From Candidatus Wukongarchaeum yapensis (GTDB lineage Archaea > Asgardarchaeota > Wukongarchaeia > Wukongarchaeales > Wukongarchaeaceae): a stretch of 24,352 bases of DNA. Within the stretch, counting starts at the first letter, position 1; every line of letters starts with the position of its first letter. Position numbers and translations under genes: made by a program. Below are positions 1 to 22,603 of this stretch, piece by piece. Location: the NCBI GenBank assembly GCA_016840425.1, contig JAEOSI010000005.1:1-24352 (forward strand), given 5' to 3'. The notes beneath the pieces were generated by a model that did not search any database, was not told the origin of the DNA, and saw only the letters and a program-made list of their open reading frames with translations.

Positions 1-1713
1 TGGCATAACTTTGAATTCAGCCCTTGTCTCTTTATCAAGCTCTTTTACTTTAACTTCCCTGTATGCTGGAGATATGTTGCAGGCGCCACATACTGGAATA
101 ATTCTCACGTTCCCTTCGCGTGGGATCTTATAAACGGTTTCAAACTCCTCGACTGTCGTCCCTAAAGGCGCTTCTACTTTTACCTCTTTTTTATGTAGAG
201 AGACGATTAAGTCGAACTCTTTTTCTAAGCACATTCTTTCCCAAAAGATGAGGGATGCTTTTCTTTCCAAAGCGTGGGTTAAATAACCCTCCTCAGTAAG
301 AGGAACCCTTTCGTCTTCAAGACCTTTGTCAGCTCTTGTCAGTTTGTCAAGGAACTCTTCAGCGGGAGCAGCAGCCCCTGTTTCAGGAGGAAGTGTCTCT
401 TTTTTCCTGGCTTTTTTCTCGGCCGGCTTGGGAACTTCAGGCTTGAGTTCTGTTCGAAGACGCTCTATTTCTTTTTCTTCTTTTACGAACATGTCTTCTT
501 CTTCCTCTATTCCTGCGTCTAGCCCCTCTAGTGTTTCGCCTAGCCCTTTACCGACGACCTCTGTTATTTTGAGGACTCCTTTCAGGTTTAACGCTTCTTC
601 GCCCACATAGTATTCCCTAGTGTAATGTTCTACATCGGTCATTATGGATTCGTATTTCGGATAACCTATTATTGTAGGGAACGCGCTTCTGGGTTGGTCT
701 TCGCCTGCATAACCTGCTTTTGTTAGTTCGGCTCCCATATCTATGACGATAGGTTTTCCAAGCTTTTCACCTAATTCTTCTTCGGAGGCTTCACCTATAA
801 CAAACATTCCTAGTTTTTCGCGAATTATGTCGGGTCCATGTTCTTCGTACTCTTTTTTAGTTATCCAAAGCCTGTTAGAACTTTTCCTTGAAGCTATTAT
901 GCTTGCCGCTATCCATTCAGCGTAACTCGGTGCTTCTGGCGTAATTATGTTGATTTTAGTGGTTTCTGGCAGGATAGCGCTAAGTTCTTTTTGTAGGCGT
1001 TCTTTTAAGCCTGAAAGCGAGGCTGTTCCGCCGCATAACACGATGTTCTCATAAAGTTTGTTACGTATTGATGCGTCGCAGCTTTTTACAGCGTCAACTA
1101 TTAGCTCACTAAGATTCTTTCCTTCAATACCAAGGACTGTGGGATTGAAAAGGCATTCTGGAGCCGTAAATCTTTCAGTGCGTATAGTTATCTTTTCGCC
1201 ATCAGGTAACGTGTAAGAGATCTCTATCTTTGCCTTTTCACTCTTCAATTCTTTTTCGTAGTCCAGTGCAGCGTAACAAAGTTTCTCCTTGATGTCGCGA
1301 ACAATCTCACGCTCAGTGCTGGTGTCAAGCGAATAACCGCTCTGCCGAAGCAACCTTCTCAAATAATCCGTGATATCGCTTCCTCCCACATCAAAAGTCC
1401 TTATAGCGTGGGTGATGGGGAAACCTTCCTCGACTGGCACAATCTCAGTAGACGTATAACCGATGCTCACAACGACTCCCGTTGTTTTACCAACACTAAT
1501 CAGAGGAAGAACGCCTTTGTCAAGGAGCATGACAGCTTGAGCGTTAAAGGTGTCAAAACAGATCTCAACTAGCTTTTCCCGATTAGCGGTAGGATTTAGG
1601 GTAGGATCTGTAAAAACAAGAGGATGTTCTGAAGGTTCAACCCGAAGATCGGTATATAGGATATAGTGTAGGATCTTTTCGAAGCCATCCCAATCAAGAA
1701 TCATTTCACTCAA
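1..1713 (-). CDS. Circularly permuted actin-family protein (Asgard actin-derived) fused to a C-terminal extra domain; 3'-partial, runs off the window edge
   Basis: Manual translation gives an open frame from TTG 1713 (GGGGG SD-like run at 1721-1725; upstream in-frame TAA at 1747-1749) to base 1 with no stop. It reads MSEMILDWDGFEKILHYILYTDLRVEPSEHP...GKTTG...EREIVRDIKEKLCYAALD...YTLPDG...ERFTAPECLFNP...LYENIVLCGGT...LWITKKEYEEHGPDIIR (actin ~72-375), then KPIVIDMGAELTKAGYAGEDQPRSAFPTIIGYPKYESIMTDVEHYTREYYVGEEALNLKGVLKI (actin ~5-70), then a linker and a further domain. Confidence 0.93.
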   Translation of the reverse strand, partial: MSEMILDWDGFEKILHYILYTDLRVEPSEHPLVFTDPTLNPTANREKLVEICFDTFNAQAVMLLDKGVLPLISVGKTTGVVVSIGYTSTEIVPVEEGFPITHAIRTFDVGGSDITDYLRRLLRQSGYSLDTSTEREIVRDIKEKLCYAALDYEKELKSEKAKIEISYTLPDGEKITIRTERFTAPECLFNPTVLGIEGKNLSELIVDAVKSCDASIRNKLYENIVLCGGTASLSGLKERLQKELSAILPETTKINIITPEAPSYAEWIAASIIASRKSSNRLWITKKEYEEHGPDIIREKLGMFVIGEASEEELGEKLGKPIVIDMGAELTKAGYAGEDQPRSAFPTIIGYPKYESIMTDVEHYTREYYVGEEALNLKGVLKITEVVGKGLGETLEGLDAGIEEEEDMFVKEEKEIERLRTELKPEVPKPAEKKARKKETLPPETGAAAPAEEFLDKLTRADKGLEDERVPLTEEGYLTHALERKASLIFWERMCLEKEFDLIVSLHKKEVKVEAPLGTTVEEFETVYKIPREGNVRIIPVCGACNISPAYREVKVKELDKETRAEFKVMP

Positions 1714-2305: not shown

Positions 2306-3802
2306 TTACGCGGTTTTTGCATGATTTTTTATTTGTTTTTCGAGGGTTTCCCAGAACATGCGCATTGAAAAGTTTGTGAAATCTTTGAACATTTCTTTTT
2401 CTTTTGTGAGTGGGGAGTAGTAAGCTGCATCATGGAGATGGCGTAGAAGCGTGTATAGGTTCACGATTTTTTGGAAGTGTTTTTTCCATGGGAGATTTTC
2501 TGTTTTTAGGAGGTTTTGGTAGGTTTTGATTATTTTTTCGTTTATTTTTTCGAGGAATTTTGTGGGGCAGTTTGGGATGATGTTTTCTGTGAGTTCTAAA
2601 TGTTTTGCTATGAATTTGTTTGCGGTTATGAGGTCTGCTATATCTTTTGCTGGGTGGCCTATGTAAAACTCTTCTAGGTCTAGTATGACGAGTCTTTCTT
2701 TTTTTGTTAGGAGTATTTGGCGCCATTGGGCGTCGTTATGTATGATAGTGAAGGGTTTTATTGGGGTTTTTTCTAATAAGGTTTTGAGAGTTTTTCCTAT
2801 TTTTTCTGCTTCTTGGGTGTTTATGAGCTGGTTTTGTAAGAGGTTTTTAATGTTTTTGTCCATGTCTTTTTTAATTAGAGGCATGAGATCGTAAAGGGGA
2901 GATATTTGGAGGTTTTTTGTTATTCGATTTTTGTGTTCGTAGCCTATTTTGTGGAACTGAAAAATTACGCTTTTTACAACTTTTTCGATCAGAGTTTCTA
3001 AGTTGGATTGTTGTGGTTGTGGTTTTTCTTTTAAACATTTTTTTTGGGTGGTTTTCCAGATTATTTCTCCTAGCTCTTTGGATTCTTTTATGTTTTCCAT
3101 GAATATGGCGAGTATTTGTTCCCGACTTTCGGGTTTTCTCTGAGTTTTTATACCTCCAAATAGTTTGGGTGTGAAGCCTGTTTTTTTAAATGTTTTTAGG
3201 GCTTCGAGTTCATTGTTTCCTCGGTAAAAACGTTCTCGTGGTAGGTAGCGTTTGATTAGTAGGGCTTTATTTTCAAAGAGTGTTATTTTAGCTAAATAAA
3301 GCCTGTTAGTGGTGGGTTCGCCTTTTGGGAATAGGGGGGAAACTGAGAGGACTTTAAGTTTATCCAGAACTTTAGCCATTTCTTCGGTTAAAAACACGGA
3401 GAATTTCCTGTTTTTTTCCTTTTTTTCGACGTTTTTTAAAAGGAGGGATACGCCTTCGGTGGAAGAGAAACGGTCGATTACGAGGAGCTTTTCATGGTTA
3501 TTAAGCTTTAATTCGCCTAAGATACGTTCTTCTTTTGATGTTTCTTTTTTAATTATTATGGATTCATAAAATTCGAAGAATTCGTTATCAAAAGTTTCTA
3601 CGTATAACATGAAGTCAAAACAGTTTTTAGAAGCGTTTATAAGTTCTATTTTACAACTTGAAATTTTTTCAAGCTTAACACGCCACCTTCTGGGGTCGTA
3701 AAAAAGTTCTGCCCACCGATTAGAAACTTTGTTATAAATGGTTAGAGTGTCAAAGTGTACGTGGAAAGACAAAAGGGTTACCTGCCCAAAATAGAATTTC
3801 AT
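2306..3802 (-). CDS. Maltokinase/aminoglycoside-phosphotransferase (APH/ChoK)-like kinase
   Basis: 498 aa. EPTTN resembles the maltokinase EQSN motif; LLIKRY supplies the Lys strand; catalytic-loop-like IIHNDAQWRQIL (cf. HGDLHLGQVL); Mg-binding VILDLEE (cf. IIDFEG); then PAKDIADL. Substrate is uncertain. Confidence 0.6.
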   Translation of the reverse strand: MKFYFGQVTLLSFHVHFDTLTIYNKVSNRWAELFYDPRRWRVKLEKISSCKIELINASKNCFDFMLYVETFDNEFFEFYESIIIKKETSKEERILGELKLNNHEKLLVIDRFSSTEGVSLLLKNVEKKEKNRKFSVFLTEEMAKVLDKLKVLSVSPLFPKGEPTTNRLYLAKITLFENKALLIKRYLPRERFYRGNNELEALKTFKKTGFTPKLFGGIKTQRKPESREQILAIFMENIKESKELGEIIWKTTQKKCLKEKPQPQQSNLETLIEKVVKSVIFQFHKIGYEHKNRITKNLQISPLYDLMPLIKKDMDKNIKNLLQNQLINTQEAEKIGKTLKTLLEKTPIKPFTIIHNDAQWRQILLTKKERLVILDLEEFYIGHPAKDIADLITANKFIAKHLELTENIIPNCPTKFLEKINEKIIKTYQNLLKTENLPWKKHFQKIVNLYTLLRHLHDAAYYSPLTKEKEMFKDFTNFSMRMFWETLEKQIKNHAKTA

Positions 3803-3830: not shown

Positions 3831-5105
3831 TTAACAGTGAACTACCCCCCGCTTTTGCAGGGGGGCTTCCTGCGAGTACATCCTTATCGGGATGCCTGTT
3901 TTTCGCAGAATATCCTCGAAGGAGGATAGCCCGTCCACTGGGGCGTTTTGTGATAGAAAACGAACCATGATGTTTACGGCTGAGTTTTTGTCTCTGTCCA
4001 GTTCGTTTCCACAATAATCACATCTCATAGCCCTATCCCATATATTCATTTCGTGTTTTTTACCGCACGCACAACATGTTTTTGTTGTGTTTTCTTCGCT
4101 GATTTCTATTACTCTCTTACCTACAAGTTTAGCCTTGTAGGTTAGAAATCTGGCGAAGCGGGATAGGCATCCGTTGTTTTGAACTGCTCTATGCAAACTT
4201 TTATCTCGTTTTTTATCCTTATTTCTATTAGAGTTAGACATCTTTTTCACGTTTAGGTCTCCTATGATTATAGTGTTTGCCTTTGTGTTCTCAACAAGCT
4301 TCTTACTCAACTTGTGCTGAAAGTCTTTTATTTGGTTTGCGCATTTTCTCTGCATTTTCCTGAGTTTTCTATGGTACCGTTTCCACTTCCTGCTCCCTTT
4401 CTTGCAATGGTCTCTTTTAGGCTGAATCTCTTCGATTTTCGACTGCCAATACTTGTCCGGTCTCGGATTCTTGGTTTGTAAAAATTTTCCTTTAGTATTT
4501 ACTGCGGTTATGATGTTGGTAATCCCTAAGTCTATTGCTTGGTAAAGTCCGTTATCCAAGTAGGGTTTCTCTTTTCTCTCATAAACGATCGAGATATAGA
4601 ACTTATCACCATCTTCTTTGAAAATTGTAACCTGTTTCACCTTTTTATCCGTGAAGTCGAACTTTTCAGGGATGGTGAACCTTAAAGGGGTGGTTTTTGG
4701 ATGGTTGTGGGAGAACTCAACCCACCCCTCCTTATCGAGCTTGAACCCCGACTGGTTGTAATTCATTGTTGTAAAGTGGTTTTTCCCTTTGAATCTTGGA
4801 GGGTTCGCTTTTTTGTCCCCGTTCCTCCTCAAAGCGAGGAAGGACTTATAGTCGCCGTCCAGCCTCCTTAGAACCATCTGCAAAACTTTTGAATAGACCC
4901 AGCTGTATTCAGGATACTTCCTTTTTATCTCTGGTAGGTCGTTCTGCTGTTTAGTGTAGTTAACATTTTTCCCGTTTTTCTTCCATGCTTCTATTCTTCC
5001 CGCTAGGGCGAAGTTGTATATGAGCCGACATTTTTCGGAAAGATCCTGAAGTACTTCTTCTTGTTCCTCTGACGGGAATATCCTGGTCTTCTGGGTTAGT
5101 TGCAT
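3831..5105 (-). CDS. tnpB: RNA-guided endonuclease TnpB
   Basis: Likely start is ATG 5105 (MQLTQKTRIFPSEEQ, HTH_OrfB-like). Motifs: RuvC-I AIDLGI, FQHKLSKKLV, RuvC-II region IIIGDL, Zn finger CCACG...CDYCG, RuvC-III DRDKNSAVNI. The stop codon lies just outside the element's right end. Confidence 0.95.
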   Translation of the reverse strand: MQLTQKTRIFPSEEQEEVLQDLSEKCRLIYNFALAGRIEAWKKNGKNVNYTKQQNDLPEIKRKYPEYSWVYSKVLQMVLRRLDGDYKSFLALRRNGDKKANPPRFKGKNHFTTMNYNQSGFKLDKEGWVEFSHNHPKTTPLRFTIPEKFDFTDKKVKQVTIFKEDGDKFYISIVYERKEKPYLDNGLYQAIDLGITNIITAVNTKGKFLQTKNPRPDKYWQSKIEEIQPKRDHCKKGSRKWKRYHRKLRKMQRKCANQIKDFQHKLSKKLVENTKANTIIIGDLNVKKMSNSNRNKDKKRDKSLHRAVQNNGCLSRFARFLTYKAKLVGKRVIEISEENTTKTCCACGKKHEMNIWDRAMRCDYCGNELDRDKNSAVNIMVRFLSQNAPVDGLSSFEDILRKTGIPIRMYSQEAPLQKRGVVHC

Positions 5106-5187
5106 CTTATATTTCTTTCCCTTGGAAACCTTATAAACACCGCGATTCATCCCCTCCCTGTTGGAAGGAGACTTCTCGCCAAATAAG
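3837..5187 (-). mobile_element. IS200/IS605-family solo-tnpB element (IS1341-type, no tnpA)
   Basis: On the minus strand the left end CTTATTTGGCGAGAAGTCTCCTTCCAACAGGGAGGGGATGAATCGCG (hairpin) follows a TTTAA target motif (+ strand TTAAA, 5188-5192). The right end is GGAAGCCCCCCTGCAAAAGCGGGGGGTAGTTCAC (hairpin plus TCAC, ending at 3837). No tnpA lies between the ends. Confidence 0.8.
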
Positions 5188-14412: not shown

Positions 14413-16512
14413 TTAACTATGAAATATCATCGGTTTTAGACGGAAGGTTTTGCGCTTTTCAAAAAAAGGAAGAATAAAGGGTTTTAAAACAGTAGAAAGA
14501 AGTAGTAAAACAAAAACATGCAGACCATATGAACCCATCATACCATAGAACTTAGAAGTCGTTGATGAAGGAACCTCTGTCGAAGTTTTTAACGGTTTAA
14601 CAGGGTTTTCACCTATAGATAAAGGATCTGGCTGACCTATAACGCCAACTATTGTTATGTTAACAAGTGATTCATCTGGCCATGTTGCTTGTATAGTGTG
14701 AGGTCCTGGCGACCAACTGCTTGTATCAGCACCATCAATGATTACAGTAGCTATTCCTGAACCGTTAGTAATGTCTGAGTCAGACCATACGGAGTTTTGG
14801 TCTGCGAAATTTATGTTTTCACCTGGTTGAGGTAATCCACCAACATCAGTTAGATGAGCGTATATTTCTATCGATTCACCTTGATTTATAACTGTGTTAT
14901 TAGCCCATACATTCAATGTATAGGGGGGATTTACGTATATTGGAATTCGATCTTCAACGGTTCCAAAGTAAGCTCGGATTATATACATTCCTGGGCTTAA
15001 ACCGGTAGTATCGTAGGTTATACTCGCCTGTCCTAAAAAGTCAGTATTATCTGTACCTATTGTTTGTGTCGTGTTGAGGTTCTCGAAAGTGATCGGTACT
15101 CCTTGCTGAGGTACAGGAGGAGAATCACCTGAAGTAGCCATAGCTGTAATTGTTATAAGATCCCCTTGTGTAACTATGGGCGGATCTGGATTTGTGGAAA
15201 TTATTGTTATATCATAATCGCTTCTGACTACGTTGGGATCTTTGGGGTTGGCCAAGATATCAGCTGCTGGGTGTTCCCCTGGGTCAAAACCAACCCATCT
15301 TCCTTCCCCTCCCGGAAGGGGTATGTAAACTTCTACCCATGAATGAATATAAAGGGCTCTAACATTTCTTATGTCGTTGTCTTGATCGCCGTAAACGAAA
15401 CCTGTCACTGCTCTAGCAGCTATGTTTTCGAGGTTTAGTAATGTAGCCATAGCCATGGCGAAATGAATCGATACACCGCTTCCTCGATCTAAGAACCATT
15501 CTACATAATCTTCATCTTCTGAGGGTGTATCCGTTGAACCTGATTGGAGCATATCATAATCGTAATAGTAATTAGTGCTCAAATAGCCAAGAACAGCCAT
15601 GGCTTGCCCAAAAACATTTAGGCTAGGTTCGTTTAGATCGGCTGCTAGCTGTATTGTGGTGCTCAGGTTGTTACCGTTAAAGTTTTCGGGATAACCGTCA
15701 GGTAGAATCATGAAATTATCTAGGACGCTTTGGGGTATATCATCACGGTTTAAAGACTGGGAAGAGATATCGCCTATATCATCGGTTATAAAGGGCGTGT
15801 CGTACTGAAGCTTGTAGGAACTTACGCCAGTCTCTTCAAGGGTGAAGAGTAACGTCCTGTAATCTGTTTGACCTACTTGCATTCCCGCTTCTGTACCTTC
15901 AACTGTAACGCTCCATACCCAACCGCCTGTATCATTAATCAATACCATGTCGGGATAGATTCTTTCCTCTTGTTCATAAGACCAGTGGGCAGGGATATAC
16001 TCGGGGTAGGGTGAATAGCTCATATTTTTAATGACAGTCATTGGGGTATTAATAGGAGGAATGGGATCGTGGTTTGGTAAACTATAATAATCAAAGGAGT
16101 TGGTTAAAGATTTTTCAATCCCGTGACCTGTATAGGTGTCATAACACTCAAGACGCCAATAAGCACCATAATTGCTGGCCAATGTTGATGAACCGTATTG
16201 AACTTGGAATACGAGCATTTGAGGGTCTTGTATGCCTAAGCTAAATTGGGAGAGGGCGGTAAGGGGTATGTAGTCGGGAAGGGCATCTATGGGTATTACG
16301 GGGTTTATGCCGTCAAAAACATTGTTATACCAGTCGGGGTCGAGGGTGGATTGGGGTGCGTCTTCAGGGTTTTGGTGATGGGTTTTCCCCCATTGGGTTA
16401 AGTAGGGAGACATTAGAATCAAGATGAACACGATGGTAGGGAGGGCGATAATAATGCTTCTTTTTTTGCTCCGTCCGCTAACTGGGGAAGATGTTGAACT
16501 CACCTGATACAA
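14413..16512 (-). CDS. Membrane-anchored transglutaminase-like domain protein with two Ig-like (Big-type) repeats
   Basis: N-terminal basic-plus-hydrophobic segment; YWRLECYDTYTG (DUF3488/TgpA-like); TGase core GSGVSIHFAMAMATLL...ARAVTGF...HSWVEVY...WVGFDP; two repeats of ITITA/IEIYA...G.P.T.....T...G.A.I....PG.(Y/H).I.A; C-terminal hydrophobic helix. Confidence 0.8.
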   Translation of the reverse strand: MYQVSSTSSPVSGRSKKRSIIIALPTIVFILILMSPYLTQWGKTHHQNPEDAPQSTLDPDWYNNVFDGINPVIPIDALPDYIPLTALSQFSLGIQDPQMLVFQVQYGSSTLASNYGAYWRLECYDTYTGHGIEKSLTNSFDYYSLPNHDPIPPINTPMTVIKNMSYSPYPEYIPAHWSYEQEERIYPDMVLINDTGGWVWSVTVEGTEAGMQVGQTDYRTLLFTLEETGVSSYKLQYDTPFITDDIGDISSQSLNRDDIPQSVLDNFMILPDGYPENFNGNNLSTTIQLAADLNEPSLNVFGQAMAVLGYLSTNYYYDYDMLQSGSTDTPSEDEDYVEWFLDRGSGVSIHFAMAMATLLNLENIAARAVTGFVYGDQDNDIRNVRALYIHSWVEVYIPLPGGEGRWVGFDPGEHPAADILANPKDPNVVRSDYDITIISTNPDPPIVTQGDLITITAMATSGDSPPVPQQGVPITFENLNTTQTIGTDNTDFLGQASITYDTTGLSPGMYIIRAYFGTVEDRIPIYVNPPYTLNVWANNTVINQGESIEIYAHLTDVGGLPQPGENINFADQNSVWSDSDITNGSGIATVIIDGADTSSWSPGPHTIQATWPDESLVNITIVGVIGQPDPLSIGENPVKPLKTSTEVPSSTTSKFYGMMGSYGLHVFVLLLLSTVLKPFILPFFEKRKTFRLKPMIFHS

Positions 16513-16642: not shown

Positions 16643-17428
16643 TTATTTTTTGTTTTTTGCCATTGCTATGCGGTTTGCGATTAGGGCGGCTGTTGCTCCT
16701 GCTCCAAAACCGTTATCTATGTTTACTATCACAAGGCCTGGGGAGCATGATTGTAGCATGGTGGTTAGGGCGCCTATGCCTTTTTCTCCGAGACCGTAGC
16801 CTGTGGAGGTGGGTACGCCTATTACGGGGATGTCGATAAGACCGGCGATTACGGAAGGGAGGGCGCCTTCCATACCTGCTATGACTACTATGCATTCTAC
16901 TTCTTCTTTTATTATTTGTTTTAGCGGTTCTATGAGCCTGTGGATTCCCGCTATTCCTACGTCTTGGGCTGTGATGACATCGCATCCCATGAGTTCTGCG
17001 GTTGTTTTTACTTCTTCTGATACTGGAAGATCTGATGATCCTGCGGTTATTATGGCGATTTTCCCTCCGGTTTTTTTAATTTGGAATCCGGGGTTTTTTA
17101 CGATGGCAAGCTTGCCTGTCTTGTTTATTTCTACTTTTAATCCTTTTTCTTCGAGTTTCTTAATCGCTTTTACATGCTTTTTCTTTAGGCGGGTGATTAA
17201 TACTATGCCTTTTTTTTCAACTATTTTTTCCGCGATGTTTGTTAAAATTTTTGGCTCTTTTTTTAAGGCCATGATCGCTTCTGGTATGCCGCTTCTTATT
17301 TCACGGTTTATATCGAGGCAAGCTATTTCCCCTATTCTCTCGATATAATCAGTTTTAATTGTTTTTTCAGCATCTTCGAGGGTGATTTGGCCTGAAACCA
17401 GCCTACTTAAAATCTCTCTAAGATTCAA
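16643..17428 (-). CDS. larB: Nickel-pincer (NPN) cofactor biosynthesis carboxylase/hydrolase LarB
   Basis: DINREIRSGIPEAI, TAGSSDLPVSEE, DVGIAGIHRL, AGMEGALPSVIAGL, PTSTGYG and MLQSCSPGLVIVNIDNGFGAG. Confidence 0.93.
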   Translation of the reverse strand: MNLREILSRLVSGQITLEDAEKTIKTDYIERIGEIACLDINREIRSGIPEAIMALKKEPKILTNIAEKIVEKKGIVLITRLKKKHVKAIKKLEEKGLKVEINKTGKLAIVKNPGFQIKKTGGKIAIITAGSSDLPVSEEVKTTAELMGCDVITAQDVGIAGIHRLIEPLKQIIKEEVECIVVIAGMEGALPSVIAGLIDIPVIGVPTSTGYGLGEKGIGALTTMLQSCSPGLVIVNIDNGFGAGATAALIANRIAMAKNKK

Positions 17429-17436
17429 ACCATTAT

Positions 17437-18666
17437 TCAGCTCCCAAACGTTTTTCGAGCTTTTTCTTCCACATTTTCTTTGATTACTCTGAGGGGTAGT
17501 TGTAATTTTTCAGCGATTTTCTGGCAATCTTCGTACTCTGCTTTGACCTGGATGATCTTATCTTCATTGTTACGGGAAAGTTTAACTCGAACCTTTTCTC
17601 CTTCATAGTCTATTTCGAGGATTTCTCTTTTACAGATGTTACGTGTGCAGATTGTTTGACGAACGCCCAACGTCCCTGTTTCCTTCATTAGGGTCTCTGT
17701 GAGGTTTTCTGCATCTTTTGGACGGCAAATTACTTGTACTACTTGGCTGGGTCGCGATTTTTTGCCGACTGCAGGGATTATTATGACATCTAAAGCCCCT
17801 TGATTCATTACTTGTTTTGCAGCATAAGCCAAAATTTCTCCGCTAAGATCATCCACATTTGTTTCTAATACCGTGATTGTTTCTTGCAGCAATTTTTGGG
17901 TTTTTTCCCCTTCTATAATCCGTAAAACATTAGCTATAGGGTATTTTTTTGAACCAGCACCATGCCCTATTCGCTCTACAGTCATTGAAGGCACATTTTT
18001 GCTTTGTGTTTCCACCAAGTTTGCAAGGATAGCAATCCCTGTAGGCGTTGTTAACTCGCCTTCCACAGGACCTCCGATTATCTCTAAGGAAGATTTGGTC
18101 AAAATTTCGAGGGTTGTTGGGGCGGGTACAGGAAGTTTACCGTGGGAGCTTTCAAAGTAGCCGCTTCCAACGGCTATAAGGGAGCAGAAGACCGATGAAT
18201 CTTTGAAGAAACCGATTTCATCGCATAAAACAGCGGTTCCTAAGACATCGAGGCAAGTGTCAAGAGTTCCTAATTCGTGAAGATGAGGGTGTCCATGGTA
18301 GTTTTGATTTTCTTCTTCTTTTCCATGGACTTTTTTTTCAGCTTCAAGAAGGGTTTGGATTACGGATTCTGCGAAATTTTCCGCTTTTTTTGAAATTGAA
18401 AGCATTTTAGAGGCTTCTTTTGTTATTTTTATCAGGTCTTCTGATTCTACTTTCACTTCAAAACCTTCAGCGATAATCTTAGTGGCAAGAATCCCCTTTC
18501 TATGAACTTTTTTTGCAGAGATTTTCACCCTAGCCCCAGTTATCTCTTCTAAAGTTTTACAAACTTTGTTTAAGGGCTCTATGTCGCCAGCCAAGTCGAC
18601 AAGGGCTCCAAGCATCATATCTCCAGCGACACCAGCAAGAGAGGCATCAATATAAAAACACTTCAA
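17437..18666 (-). CDS. larC: Nickel-pincer cofactor nickel insertase LarC
   Basis: AGVAGDMMLGALVDL, His-rich VHG...HGHPHLHELG, SHGKLPVPAPTT, ELTTPTGIA, ETNVDDLSGE, KKSRPS, ETGTLGVR and KAEYEDC. Single uninterrupted ORF. Confidence 0.93.
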   Translation of the reverse strand: MKCFYIDASLAGVAGDMMLGALVDLAGDIEPLNKVCKTLEEITGARVKISAKKVHRKGILATKIIAEGFEVKVESEDLIKITKEASKMLSISKKAENFAESVIQTLLEAEKKVHGKEEENQNYHGHPHLHELGTLDTCLDVLGTAVLCDEIGFFKDSSVFCSLIAVGSGYFESSHGKLPVPAPTTLEILTKSSLEIIGGPVEGELTTPTGIAILANLVETQSKNVPSMTVERIGHGAGSKKYPIANVLRIIEGEKTQKLLQETITVLETNVDDLSGEILAYAAKQVMNQGALDVIIIPAVGKKSRPSQVVQVICRPKDAENLTETLMKETGTLGVRQTICTRNICKREILEIDYEGEKVRVKLSRNNEDKIIQVKAEYEDCQKIAEKLQLPLRVIKENVEEKARKTFGS

Positions 18667-18695
18667 CTTTTATCCCAACAACCTAAAAACGGCCT

Positions 18696-19526
18696 TTAGA
18701 GGACCAAGTTAAGAGAGCCTGTTTTATAGCCTTCTATATCAAAACATATGTAAGTAAAACCCAGATTTTTTAATTTATCGGCGATTTTTTCAAATAGCTC
18801 TATGTTGAAAAGTTTTTCTCGTTCATTCTTTCCCACCTCTATACGGGCAAGCCCTTCATGATCCCTAACCCTTAAAACCCGTATTTTAGCTACCTCTTTA
18901 ATGAACTTTTCAGCCTCCCCAATTCTCCTGAGTTTCCCCTCTGTTATCTTACTACCGTAAGGAATTCTTGAAGCCAAACAGGCAGATGAAGGCTTTCCTG
19001 CGACATTTTTCAAGCCAAAGCCTAAAGCAAGGAGCCTCACTTCTTCTTTAGTTACACCCGCTTCAGCAAAAGGGCTTAAAACACCATGCTCTTTTAAGGC
19101 TTGAATTCCCGGTCGATAATCTCCTTCTACGTCAGAAGCATTGGTACCATCCACTATTAAATCACAACCCTCAGCACGAGCGACTTCTTCCAGCTTTTCA
19201 AGAATTTGTTTTTTACAGTAATAACACCGGTTAACAGGGTTTGAAACAAAGTTTGGATCCTTAAGCGAATCAACCTTAACAACTATATGCTTTACGTTTA
19301 AATTTTCAGCAAAAACTCTTGCTTCTTCAATCTCACCTAAGGGAAAAATAACCGAATCCACAGTAACAGCAACAACCTTACTACAAAATCTTTCCGCTAA
19401 AAATAAGAGTAAAGAACTATCAACCCCCCCAGAAAAACCAACAAGAACACGCCTACCTTCCAAAAAAGCACGCAACTTTTGCAACTTGCCAGCCAACAGT
19501 GAATCCTCTAAAGGAATTACAGACAT
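18696..19526 (-). CDS. larE: ATP-dependent sulfur transferase LarE
   Basis: PP-loop GFSGGVDSS, NRCYYCKK, DGTNASD, DYRPGIQA, SSACLASRIPYG, RVRDH and GYKTGSLN. Confidence 0.93.
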   Translation of the reverse strand: MSVIPLEDSLLAGKLQKLRAFLEGRRVLVGFSGGVDSSLLLFLAERFCSKVVAVTVDSVIFPLGEIEEARVFAENLNVKHIVVKVDSLKDPNFVSNPVNRCYYCKKQILEKLEEVARAEGCDLIVDGTNASDVEGDYRPGIQALKEHGVLSPFAEAGVTKEEVRLLALGFGLKNVAGKPSSACLASRIPYGSKITEGKLRRIGEAEKFIKEVAKIRVLRVRDHEGLARIEVGKNEREKLFNIELFEKIADKLKNLGFTYICFDIEGYKTGSLNLVL

Positions 19527-19702: not shown

Positions 19703-20215
19703 TTATATGGATTCTAGAACGGTTTTCATTTCTTTTAGCCATCTTTGCTCTCTTGGATTTGCAAAACTGTAGTCCGCATTTGGCTGGTGGTATCTGTTTA
19801 GGGAGATCTTTTTTAGGTCTGTCGCATAATGTTTTATAGCTGATAGCATCTGGCTTTGATGATAGTAGTATCCTCCAAAGTAAATCAGTAAGTCGAAAGA
19901 CTCCTTTCCTTCTACATTTCTCCACCCGCGAGATAATTTGGAAGTAACCTCTGTTAAACCAAGGATCATGTCAGGTTTTATCCCGTCTTCTAGAAAGGTT
20001 TTATTGGCTATAGGTGTAAAAACAACTGTTCCGTCTTTCTCTTTTATCTTATTTATGAAAGTTTTCGCGATTTCAAGCTCATAGTCTTCTAGTTTACCCA
20101 CGATCAATAGAGGGTGAGCGGACTCTTTAAGTATTTCAACAAGCTTTTCTGCCTTGAGCTTTTTTGCCACTATATGCCCTGGAACGTTTGCTATTTGCCA
20201 AGGAGTTACAGACAT
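19703..20215 (-). CDS. cdhB: CO dehydrogenase/acetyl-CoA synthase complex epsilon subunit
   Basis: PWQIANVPG, HPLLIVG, GGYYYHQSQMLSAIKHY and SLNRYHQPNADYSFAN; located immediately downstream of cdhA. Confidence 0.9.
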   Translation of the reverse strand: MSVTPWQIANVPGHIVAKKLKAEKLVEILKESAHPLLIVGKLEDYELEIAKTFINKIKEKDGTVVFTPIANKTFLEDGIKPDMILGLTEVTSKLSRGWRNVEGKESFDLLIYFGGYYYHQSQMLSAIKHYATDLKKISLNRYHQPNADYSFANPREQRWLKEMKTVLESI

Positions 20216-20260
20216 TTTTGCTACCTCTTTAAAAATTTTTATTAGCTCTCTATAAAAATT

Positions 20261-22603
20261 TTAAGTTTTTGGTTTCCTGACAAGCCTTTCAAGCAATGTT
20301 GGATCCGGTATCGGTGTTGGCTTCCAATCAAATTTCGCCAAATGCTCTTGGATCTCATGCATCACGGTTTTCGGTATATCACTTTCAGATCTTACGAAGT
20401 AGTGGATATCATCAGGAAACGTGCCGATATATCGCTTATGTAAATCGACATAATGGGCTAGTTTTATCTGTCTTCCTTTTGTTGTATCGTTGGCCCTTAT
20501 GCAAAGTTTAGCGATTAATGGCACAGCTTCTTCTAACGATTCTGCGGGATATAGCAAGTGTTCAGGCGCCGGGCCGATATACGTTTTTTCACCAGTTCTA
20601 GCGTTAAATACCTGCCACTTGGAATCGTCATCTTTATCACCCATAAAACTCCGCCTATACTTTGACCCGTGAGGTCCTATCACTACCGGCACGCCGATCC
20701 GGTTAAATCCTGTAGCTATTGATGCAGCTTTCTGGCTCATAGCACCCCAAGCAACTCCACAAGCGCCTACCCTGTGAAGGATATAGTCAGCTATCTCTTC
20801 AAAGTTGTTTTTCAGGGGTCGCCTTGCAAAAATAGCCGCAATTTTTATCGCTGCTCCAGCTATGTTAGAGTTGGAGACACAAGAACCGACGTTAACTATG
20901 CCTGAAGCATCGAAATCTCCTGGATACTCTTCATACAAACATTGGCCTTCTTCGTTCAACTGCCAGCCTGTATCCATGGCTGCACAACCACTGGTGGTGA
21001 TGATATATCTTCTGCGTGCAAACTCTCTGATCAGGTTTGGTACGTCTTGTTCGGTTTCTGGGTAGTTCATGCAACCTACCACGCCTAGAACTCCCGGTAT
21101 TTCGCCTAAAACGATGGCGCTACCTACTGCCCTTATTTCAACATCGCTTATCGCGCCTCTTCCAGCGCGCATTTTGAACTTCAGCGTTTTTGTTCTCCTT
21201 TCGTCAGCTTTCGTAATTAGACCCATTATAGGGATGTCTTTTGGACATTCTTGTTCACATCTTAAGCATCCAAGACAGTGATCGAAAAGTTTTGCAAGGG
21301 GTTCATAATCACCTTCTTTTCCCGCTTTCATTGCGTAAGGTATTTTCAAATCGTTGGGGCATACACGTCTACACCGTCCGCATTCAATGCATAGATCGAT
21401 AAACTCTTTGAACTCCTCATCAGAGGGAATAGTCTTTTTCTTCTGTCGTAGAGGGGCTAATTTCAAAGCTGTTTTTACAGCTACTTCGCCAACTTTTTCC
21501 TCGTCAAATATCACTGCGCCGGGTAATTTTCCACTAGCAAATCCTTCAACGATTTTATCAGGATCCTCCTCTGTCATGTCGGGGAAACCATAACATACTT
21601 TCGCCGTTGTAGCTATGACAGGTGCTCCTATTTTCGCAGCTTCTTCAGGAATATTAGCTCTGATACACTGCTCATCCACCACTACTACATCAGGTACACC
21701 GCTTCTTATGAATTTGAGTTGATGGCTCATAGAACCAACCACTTTAGCGGTTTTCCGATATCTTGACATGTCAATTGCGGTACAACATATTGCACATACT
21801 TCTATATTATCCTCTTGACCCATAGTCTCCAAATAATCCATAATTTCTGCTCCGGGAGCAACATTGTGGCCAACACAGAGAATTACGGGTTTTTCCACGT
21901 TAATTACTCCGTAACCTAACTCGATCAGGGGAGCTTCTGGATCAGCCTTTGGAAATCCCAAAGCAGCAATCTGCACGATGTCCGCTAATTCCATGGCAAG
22001 TAGATCCAACATTCCGGCGTGTAATGCTTTTGATTCGAAGTCTAAGGCGCTTCCTTCTTGACCTGTGTGGACTGCTGCGAGAAGTTGGGTTATTTGTTCT
22101 TCTACGTACTCCATTGGTTCCTCTAGGTCTCCGATGGTTTCTGGTTTTATTCCGCATACCAGCCTTGTTACTGGTGCTTCGATGTTGACGCCTTCTCCCA
22201 TGCTGATTGGGATGTTTCTTCCGTATTTTTCAATATAATAATCTAAAAGATGTCTTCCGTGTGCTGCGTGGCAAGATACACCTATACAACAAGCTAGCAA
22301 AATTATTCTTCCTTGTTGCGCTGAGGTGTCTATTCCGCAAGCTCCTCGTTTTCCAGCGGTTAAATCGCATTTGCCGAAGGTACATAGTTCGCATGAATCA
22401 GTAAATGGGGCGTAGAACATAGGATACCGCTTTAATAATTTAAAATCCCATCCGCGAAGGTCTTCAACTTTTGGAAAAGGTGTTGGTCCTGATACTTCGT
22501 CTAGCTCTGTTGTTACGAGACTACCGATCGAAATCTCAAAATCTTCTGCACGTAGTGCTGGAATTTCCAGCTTGCCCATTTTTGCTTTTATTTTTCGTCC
22601 CAA
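20261..22603 (-). CDS. cdhA: CO dehydrogenase/acetyl-CoA synthase complex alpha subunit (archaeal Ni-CODH)
   Basis: CELCTFGKC, GVSCHAAHGRHL, VGHNV, ICCTAID, DEQC, two ferredoxin motifs CIECGRCRRVCP and CLGCLRCEQECP, GCMNYP, SGC, GSCVSN and WGAMSQKAASIATG. Confidence 0.97.
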   Translation of the reverse strand: MGRKIKAKMGKLEIPALRAEDFEISIGSLVTTELDEVSGPTPFPKVEDLRGWDFKLLKRYPMFYAPFTDSCELCTFGKCDLTAGKRGACGIDTSAQQGRIILLACCIGVSCHAAHGRHLLDYYIEKYGRNIPISMGEGVNIEAPVTRLVCGIKPETIGDLEEPMEYVEEQITQLLAAVHTGQEGSALDFESKALHAGMLDLLAMELADIVQIAALGFPKADPEAPLIELGYGVINVEKPVILCVGHNVAPGAEIMDYLETMGQEDNIEVCAICCTAIDMSRYRKTAKVVGSMSHQLKFIRSGVPDVVVVDEQCIRANIPEEAAKIGAPVIATTAKVCYGFPDMTEEDPDKIVEGFASGKLPGAVIFDEEKVGEVAVKTALKLAPLRQKKKTIPSDEEFKEFIDLCIECGRCRRVCPNDLKIPYAMKAGKEGDYEPLAKLFDHCLGCLRCEQECPKDIPIMGLITKADERRTKTLKFKMRAGRGAISDVEIRAVGSAIVLGEIPGVLGVVGCMNYPETEQDVPNLIREFARRRYIITTSGCAAMDTGWQLNEEGQCLYEEYPGDFDASGIVNVGSCVSNSNIAGAAIKIAAIFARRPLKNNFEEIADYILHRVGACGVAWGAMSQKAASIATGFNRIGVPVVIGPHGSKYRRSFMGDKDDDSKWQVFNARTGEKTYIGPAPEHLLYPAESLEEAVPLIAKLCIRANDTTKGRQIKLAHYVDLHKRYIGTFPDDIHYFVRSESDIPKTVMHEIQEHLAKFDWKPTPIPDPTLLERLVRKPKT

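Follow-up and report, generated by a model that had tools for sequence, protein, structure and literature searches.

We have found, at the edge of a contig of the Asgard archaeon Candidatus Wukongarchaeum yapensis, a circularly permuted actin whose tail is probably a membrane-tethering module, as judged from sequence comparison and structure prediction. The window analysed here is the whole of contig JAEOSI010000005.1 (24,352 nucleotides, forward strand), designated C97, of the 2.16-Mb, 277-contig, 92% complete assembly GCA_016840425.1 (G000). Positions 1..1713 of its minus strand form a single open reading frame (ORF) of 571 codons which runs off the left edge of the window, open at its 3' end, and which is completed on a second contig, C22, of the same assembly. 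In the arrangement that we propose, a flexible, acidic spacer of ~90 residues would leave the new C-terminus of the permuted actin fold and end in a compact, cytoplasmic beta-sandwich resting immediately on a hairpin of two helices embedded in the cell membrane. The elements of the protein, in order from its N-terminus, are as follows.

814..1704, minus strand: first and larger segment of the permuted actin (residues 4-300, corresponding to actin ~75-373)
763..813, minus strand: joint of ~17 residues (301-317), falling between the two BLAST segments, through which the former C-terminus of actin is connected to its former N-terminus
562..762, minus strand: second segment of the permuted actin, the N-terminal piece up to the sensor loop (residues 318-384)
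283..558, minus strand: acidic Glu/Lys/Pro spacer, probably disordered from its composition and rate of evolution (residues 386-477, 92 residues)
1..282, minus strand: first two thirds of the conserved beta-sandwich (residues 478-571; profile match E 4.8e-39)
79..90, minus strand: CGAC motif (residues 542-545), lying in a turn that connects two predicted strands; the family does not conserve it
Contig C22, locus L002:145-516, plus strand: rest of the sandwich (residues 572-622), the two helices and the basic end (profile match E 4.0e-71)

Results

The host gene encodes a circularly permuted actin

By alignment, the N-terminal two thirds of the ORF corresponds to an actin whose chain has been circularly permuted, with the cut near actin residue 73/75. 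Residues 4-300 match the Pfam Actin family (PF00022, profile positions 69-408 of 410, E 1.1e-106, 357 bits against a cut-off of 27) and, in a sequence search of the PDB, pair with residues 75-373 of solved eukaryotic actins. When compared by BLASTP with the genome's own canonical actin (contig C185, locus L003), the protein yields two segments in swapped order, residues 4-291 pairing with canonical residues 85-374 at 54% identity and residues 318-384 with canonical residues 12-78 at 62% identity. The swapped segments, combined with the PDB alignment, thus indicate that the chain has been cut near 73/75 and that the old ends have been rejoined through a spacer of ~17 residues. The break falls within actin residues 70-78, which we take to be the sensor loop, in agreement with the initial annotation of this DNA, in which the tail was placed at that loop. 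Upstream of the TTG start the frame remains open for only 11 further codons (582 vs 571), and therefore no N-terminal piece of the permuted actin is hidden there.

The permuted domain has neither the canonical chain order nor intact nucleotide motifs. In actin, the motifs DNGSG and DSGDG together with Gln 137 and His 161 have phosphate-binding and catalytic roles. These positions are altered in all seven permuted sequences as opposed to none of eight canonical Asgard actins, DNG[ST]G being replaced by D[MI]G[AT]x, Gln 137 by Lys, DSG[DT]G by [NS]IG[YE]x and His 161 by Glu or Lys. Because of these changes, the tethered actin-like domain is probably not an ATPase. The ratio of nonsynonymous to synonymous substitution (dN/dS), calculated here and below against the ortholog of the sister genome G001, is 0.22 for the actin part.

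The distribution of the permuted form was followed with a probe spanning the joint (old C-terminus, spacer and old N-terminus), which matched in 364 of 400 genomes of the phylum. Among the 150 matches listed (567 more were obtained), at least four reach back to the first residue of the joint, namely the two paralogs of G000 and the two of G001, the remainder beginning at the canonical actin N-terminus. Among the matches listed, then, permuted actins are, from the alignments, rare and always associated with the module. The second, diverged paralog of G000 lies on contig C20 (locus L012:1489-3597, minus strand) as an open frame of 753 aa, with a counterpart of 754 aa in G001, and repeats the layout of the window protein: permuted actin, acidic spacer, sandwich and two-helix end. 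Its actin part is 47% identical to that of the G001 ortholog of the window protein and its spacer is longer and more acidic than that of the window protein.

The reading frame is completed across a contig break

Bases 1-144 of the window are 100% identical to bases 1-144 of contig C22, in opposite orientation, and on C22 the frame continues for 123 codons to a stop, yielding a 694-aa protein. A DUF166 gene begins ~190 bases past this stop. The sister genome G001, the only other genome of the genus, encodes an intact ortholog of 696 aa, followed by the same DUF166 gene, with a tail 87% identical to that of the window protein. Six to seven further clusters from other assemblies hold the same ORF, and proteins P0003, P0006 and P0007, also from other assemblies, run across the contig break. 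Contigs of 2801, 3477 and 3477 nt, assembled from three DNA runs of three studies, span the equivalent place unbroken, with ~90% identity to the G001 gene, and extend into the next gene. The join between C97 and C22 is accepted because of the exact overlap, the intact G001 ortholog, the spanning proteins and contigs, and the C20 paralog of the same layout; it is correct, and 694 aa is the full length. The frame thus continues past the window edge as initially annotated, and the completion called for at that time disclosed two hydrophobic, putatively transmembrane helices in the added part.

Orthologs range from 690 to 716 aa, differing in the length of the spacer. The spacer region is strain-variable and, in three metagenome runs, is shattered into many short contigs; this variability, located upstream of the 144-base overlap, probably caused the contig break. 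A single metatranscriptome contig of 273 nt, which in its alignment to the G001 ortholog's spacer region shows 22 differences and 15 gap positions, was rejected as a sign of transcription, being both too weak and too diverged.

A fast-evolving spacer leads into a highly conserved beta-sandwich

The charged Pro/Lys/Glu linker first noted behind the actin fold is present, both peptides quoted for it and for the following domain occurring exactly in the ORF, and the span originally assigned to the two, positions 1-543, corresponds to residues 391-571. Residues 386-480 (95 aa) contain 21 Glu, 11 Lys and 7 Pro, with a net charge of -10 and 44% charged residues. With a dN/dS of 0.58, compared to 0.09-0.22 for the flanking parts, the spacer is weakly constrained and is the fastest-evolving part of the protein. 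Its composition, length variation, fast evolution and shattered assemblies fit a flexible, disordered linker.

The sandwich occupies residues 478-622 (~145 residues), is 95% identical between the window protein and its G001 ortholog and, with a dN/dS of 0.09, is the most constrained part of the protein. For the 227-residue tail of the G001 ortholog, with an input of 27 family sequences, AlphaFold2 returned a model with a mean predicted local distance difference test score (pLDDT) of 80 and a predicted template-modelling score (pTM) of 0.62. In this model a sandwich of ~ten strands is confidently predicted at model residues 14-138, where pLDDT, taken in blocks of ten residues, is 81-98 and above 90 over most of the domain, in keeping with the beta-sandwich-like domain that had been proposed from the sequence. 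The extreme conservation of the sandwich suggests a role beyond spacing, such as self-association or the recognition of a shared partner.

The tail ends in two predicted membrane helices

Downstream of the sandwich, hydrophobic helices at residues 624-645 and 656-680 are separated by a loop of approximately ten residues, including Asp, Glu and Arg, with a short basic end extending from the second helix to residue 694. Kyte-Doolittle means over 19 residues reach 1.6 in residues 624-643 and 2.56 in residues 652-686, and AlphaFold2 places helices at model residues 156-177 and 186-212. This region has a dN/dS of 0.19. At least two hydrophobic segments are detected within the last 110 residues in 22 of 27 family members, while the strong second one is present in all 27. 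Summed over these 22 members, Lys and Arg number 53 before the helices, 19 in the loop and 49 after, and Asp and Glu number 25, 41 and 20, respectively, a distribution which fits the positive-inside rule with both ends of the hairpin inside.

From sequence and model together, the two helices would form a membrane hairpin with both ends in the cytoplasm and the short acidic loop outside. In a Kyte-Doolittle scan the actin part and the sandwich are not separated by any hydrophobic segment, and they are therefore placed on the same, cytoplasmic side. Of the two kinds of anchorage originally suggested for the tail, to a partner or to a membrane, the terminal helices thus predict the latter.

The module is widespread in Asgard archaea

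An exhaustive phmmer search with the 227-residue tail against 1.84 billion representative proteins detected 22 proteins at E <=0.001. A profile of the module is far more sensitive, detecting it in 202 of 400 genomes of the phylum, 45 of the 90 of high quality, and in 48 of 85 genera, with one copy in most module-bearing genomes and open frames of ~320-750 codons. Named sources are always Asgard lineages: 14 of 57 hits are named, 12 as Thorarchaeota and one each as Lokiarchaeota and Heimdallarchaeota, and further named hits come from Hodarchaeota, Promethearchaeota and Sigynarchaeum. In public records the products are termed 'hypothetical protein' or 'membrane protein of unknown function'. A word-indexed search for longer fused forms retrieved 10 proteins and missed P0019, P0022, P0024 and P0025, and thus understates the family, while a related-locus search with a single-protein query returned the G001 record only. 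P0020 and P0028, matched over several short stretches at E 1e-5 to 9e-4, were set aside as probable repeat-driven chance hits, and the fragments P0014, P0015, P0017, P0021, P0023 and P0026 (51-159 aa) were left out of the proteins examined.

The usual layout is an N-terminal part, a long low-complexity spacer, often Pro-rich, the sandwich and the hairpin. A Pfam scan of 20 members identified a recognisable partner domain in nine and none in 11, with weak Band_7 signals in two of the latter (E 0.0012 and 0.16). Asgard carriers other than the permuted actins, for which a search had been recommended, thus exist in considerable variety, and the Pfam partners are listed below.

Actin: C20 paralog
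Ras/Roc: P0022 and the L031 ORF
Pkinase: P0024
TPR: P0016 and L024
Band_7 with a zinc ribbon: P0027
LRR: P0018, in which the module is N-terminal, before the LRR
MCR_gamma fragment: P0029

The commonest short form, in Thorarchaeota-named proteins (P0009-P0012, L014-L022), has as its N-terminal part only a membrane helix with basic residues behind it, and in P0019 the module is preceded by a large N-terminal part, followed by a membrane helix and an Arg-rich stretch. From the sequences, the sandwich is predicted to be cytoplasmic in all of these layouts.

The most widespread form (loci L036, L040 and L041), found in the family designated f9, is a protein of ~450-480 aa with matches in 113 of 135 f9 genomes; these proteins share a conserved N-terminal domain of ~100 residues which matches no Pfam family. 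Long proline runs, such as PPPP with Ala, Gly or Ser, occur in many module-protein spacers (loci L033-L035 and L040, and P0022) and could bind Asgard profilin. The spacer of the window protein, with only 7 Pro, lacks a long proline run.

Ras-like GTPases bearing the module are also permuted

In P0008, whose module is 58% identical to that of the window type, in P0022 and in the L031 ORF (L031:1387-2667, minus strand), the GTPase motifs occur in the order (G3)-G4-G5-G1. G4 occupies residues 63-68, G5 residues 97-104 and the P-loop residues 146-148, and the Pfam profiles are matched correspondingly, Ras positions 47-158 first and then Roc positions 1-42. The DxxG of G3 is intact in P0008 only. 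The L031 frame has only 8 additional codons ahead of its start (427 of 435), and its permutation is therefore not the product of a missed start. In the Ras fold, the beta2-beta3 hairpin lies between switch I and switch II, and from the motif order combined with this general layout the GTPase is cut in that hairpin. The resulting order is G3-G4-G5-G1-G2, as opposed to G4-G5-G1-G2-G3 in the known circularly permuted GTPases, those of the YlqF/RsgA type. The kinase, TPR and SPFH partners look unpermuted, whereas the actin and Ras-like GTPase partners are permuted, with the spacer exiting from a loop beside their nucleotide-sensing elements.

Structural comparison of the sandwich

Foldseek against the PDB returned generic immunoglobulin (Ig)-like sandwiches at E ~1e-4 to 3e-3, among them PmoB, cohesin, CARDB, complement MG, TRAP-beta and MSP/PapD-like domains. 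PmoB, for which the alignment covers both the sandwich and the two helices, was rejected as a meaningful relative at a root-mean-square deviation of 16-18 Å. Ig-like sandwiches located near membrane helices reach template-modelling (TM) scores of only 0.26-0.38 to the module, and PmoB, TRAP-beta, CARDB, complement MG and MSP/PapD-like domains face the outside or the lumen, whereas the Asgard sandwich is predicted to face the cytoplasm. VIA-align against 48,161 representatives ranked UPA-domain chains at the top, with scores statistically tied with those of generic Ig-like domains.

DUF7363 (PF24063) is the only Pfam family recurring on the sandwich, in six of 27 members with a best E of 0.042. 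Residues 27-122 of the G001 tail match positions 7-98 of the 107 of its profile, with 13.6 bits against a curated cut-off of 28.3, and in the genome of the window protein the DUF7363 match reaches E 0.127. All of these matches lie far under the cut-off. A search of the ESM Atlas gave best scores of 0.88, to bacterial clusters, which is below lead level.

Neighbouring genes in the window

The other genes of the window include IS605 OrfB/TnpB-like, cation efflux, peptidase, argininosuccinate synthase and CO dehydrogenase subunit genes, none of which is cytoskeletal. Those of note are listed below.

2306-3802, minus strand: ORF of 498 aa directly upstream of the actin gene, with no Pfam family
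3831-5150, minus strand: IS605 OrfB/TnpB-like gene, two genes upstream of the actin gene, with HTH_OrfB_IS605, OrfB_IS605 and Cas12f1-like TNB domains
14413-16512, minus strand: protein of 699 aa with a transglutaminase-like core and bacterial Ig-like domains
16643-19526, minus strand: three adjacent genes with AIRC, Ni_insertion and QueC/NAD-synthase-like domains
19703-22603, minus strand: CO dehydrogenase/acetyl-CoA synthase subunit genes (CO_dh epsilon-type; Prismane with 4Fe-4S domains)

In the 498-aa ORF a motif of the HxDxxxxN type, like that of small-molecule kinases, is visible by eye. The AIRC, Ni_insertion and QueC-like set resembles the nickel-pincer cofactor genes LarB, LarC and LarE.

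Discussion

Alternative readings of the tail

A chimeric assembly, or a gene fusion confined to this metagenome bin, is scarcely credible as the origin of the tail. The window contig does end within the gene and its join to C22 depends on a 144-nt overlap, but the ORF is intact in the sister genome, the same protein is recovered in independent clusters from NCBI, ENA, JGI and Logan, contigs of three runs cross the place, and a diverged paralog in the same genome has identical architecture. The tail thus does not represent a known module whose fusion is restricted to this assembly, nor does the ORF stop at once behind the actin, either of which would have spoken against the domain as first described. 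The CxxC feature of that description survives only in part, as CGAC is present at residues 542-545 but is not a feature of the family. It occurs in the window protein, its orthologs and Thorarchaeota-type members, whereas of the 27 aligned members 15 retain the first Cys, 18 the second and seven a third (in ERMC). The family has no conserved set of four metal or redox ligands, its invariant positions being Met, Pro, Phe, Pro and Pro. A metal or redox site is therefore unlikely from the alignment, and the chance that the CxxC marks a domain of that kind is very slight.

Two further alternatives retain the association with the membrane and alter what the module does there. The helices could form a monotopic wedge in one leaflet, of the reticulon or caveolin type, sensing or inducing curvature, in line with the shortness of the loop (8-13 residues in the closest members) and a first helix rich in Gly, Ser and Phe. 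Predicted helices of 22 and 27 residues are, however, long enough to cross a bilayer, and a loop that is charged and net acidic across the family would be unfavourable inside the membrane, making the wedge improbable. Alternatively, the sandwich could be a true, very distant homolog of the UPA domain (of UNC5, ankyrin, PIDD and NLRP1/CARD8) which drives higher-order assembly under the membrane. In that case the module would serve as an organising hub instead of a passive anchor, a role which would add to anchoring and not replace it. We consider this reading doubtful, though less so than the wedge. The UPA domains of UNC5b, ankyrin-B and NLRP1/CARD8 (PDB 3g5b, 4d8o, 6m3q, 7crv and 7jkq) are 3-12% identical to the sandwich, which amounts to no sequence similarity, and UPA is not followed by a membrane hairpin, as the Asgard sandwich is. 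No UPA, ZU5 or FIIND family is listed for the 27 members at E up to 10, a range in which the HMMER filters drop most matches above ~0.1, and in Pfam scans of the window protein, of its ortholog and of 20 family members the sandwich is neither preceded by a ZU5 domain nor followed by a death-fold domain.

A proposed membrane tether for varied cytoplasmic domains

We return to the tail as a probable membrane tether. The sandwich and hairpin appear to be a portable unit positioned behind varied cytoplasmic domains, in each case with a long low-complexity spacer between them, and, because of this reuse, the module's own job would be anchoring, with nothing specific to actin. In the window protein, the actin-like domain, with its degenerate ATP motifs, would be held within at most some tens of nm of the inner membrane face, the spacer allowing it to range over a shell of up to that depth, where it may provide a fixed docking, capping or seeding site for ordinary actin or for actin-binding proteins.

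Several observations weigh against this interpretation. Anchoring at the C-terminus provides no reason for either the actin or the GTPase to be permuted. The first helix is moderately hydrophobic, falling below threshold in five of 27 members. In Pfam scans the sandwich reaches the cut-off of no family, and it has no sequence relative in the PDB, a search with the family profile giving E 0.73 and 4.7 on membrane proteins. The search for operon partners recommended at the outset found no conserved one, the DUF166 gene being common to the same-genus genome only. AlphaFold2 also performed poorly on the permuted actin part (401 aa; pLDDT 47, pTM 0.45) with an alignment of the seven permuted sequences and eight canonical actins, each canonical actin entered as two rows; as a result, the complete actin fold is argued from the sequence alignment.

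The proposed tether has parallels in known systems. FtsA and MreB likewise bring an actin-fold protein to the inner membrane face through an element of their own chain, an amphipathic helix in both, which in FtsA is C-terminal and behind a flexible linker. In contrast to these unpermuted proteins, the Asgard protein is a permuted true actin with a sandwich and two predicted membrane-spanning helices. Ras, Rab and Rho, with a hypervariable linker and a lipid anchor, and Miro, a tail-anchored GTPase, keep a nucleotide switch at the membrane through a flexible C-terminal spacer with a terminal anchor, as P0008, P0022 and L031 would. In the module GTPases, however, the anchor would be made of protein, the sandwich and hairpin, and not of lipid, and the GTPase is permuted.

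A more elaborate proposal, which joins several of these observations, strikes us as a long shot. According to it, the module would be a phylum-wide, UPA-like juxtamembrane hub and the nucleotide switches would have been deliberately re-cut such that the tether exits the nucleotide-reading element, the sensor loop in actin and the beta2-beta3 interswitch hairpin in Ras-like GTPases, while the two pseudo-actin paralogs, both anchored in the membrane, would jointly make up a fixed, Arp2/Arp3-like seed nucleating ordinary actin filaments there. If true, it would represent a pre-eukaryotic membrane-cytoskeleton linker related to the ankyrin/UNC5 type.

New in this work are the completion of the ORF, the family with its phylum-wide spread and its partners, permuted GTPases among them, the best structural match, which is UPA-like, and its limits, the selection profile along the protein and the non-conserved CxxC. 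The portions of the literature consulted, including PMC12962969 and 10.1101/2024.02.28.582541 but not the supplementary tables that accompany Asgard protein-family catalogues, in which such clusters may be entered, make no mention of an Asgard actin that is permuted or membrane-anchored, of a permuted GTPase from Asgard archaea, of an archaeal domain resembling UPA or of DUF7363.

The membrane-tethering interpretation bears on the open question of how the archaeal ancestors of eukaryotes coupled the actin cytoskeleton and small GTPases to membranes. We know of no use of eukaryote-style lipid anchors by Asgard archaea. No Pfam family covers the module, and the tail raises the question of why both of its nucleotide-binding partners are circularly permuted. 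The tail points to a protein-based answer, a conserved and portable sandwich-plus-hairpin anchor on a long spacer, which would serve actin in this lineage and, in Thor-, Loki-, Heimdall- and related archaea, Ras-like GTPases, kinases, and SPFH and TPR proteins.

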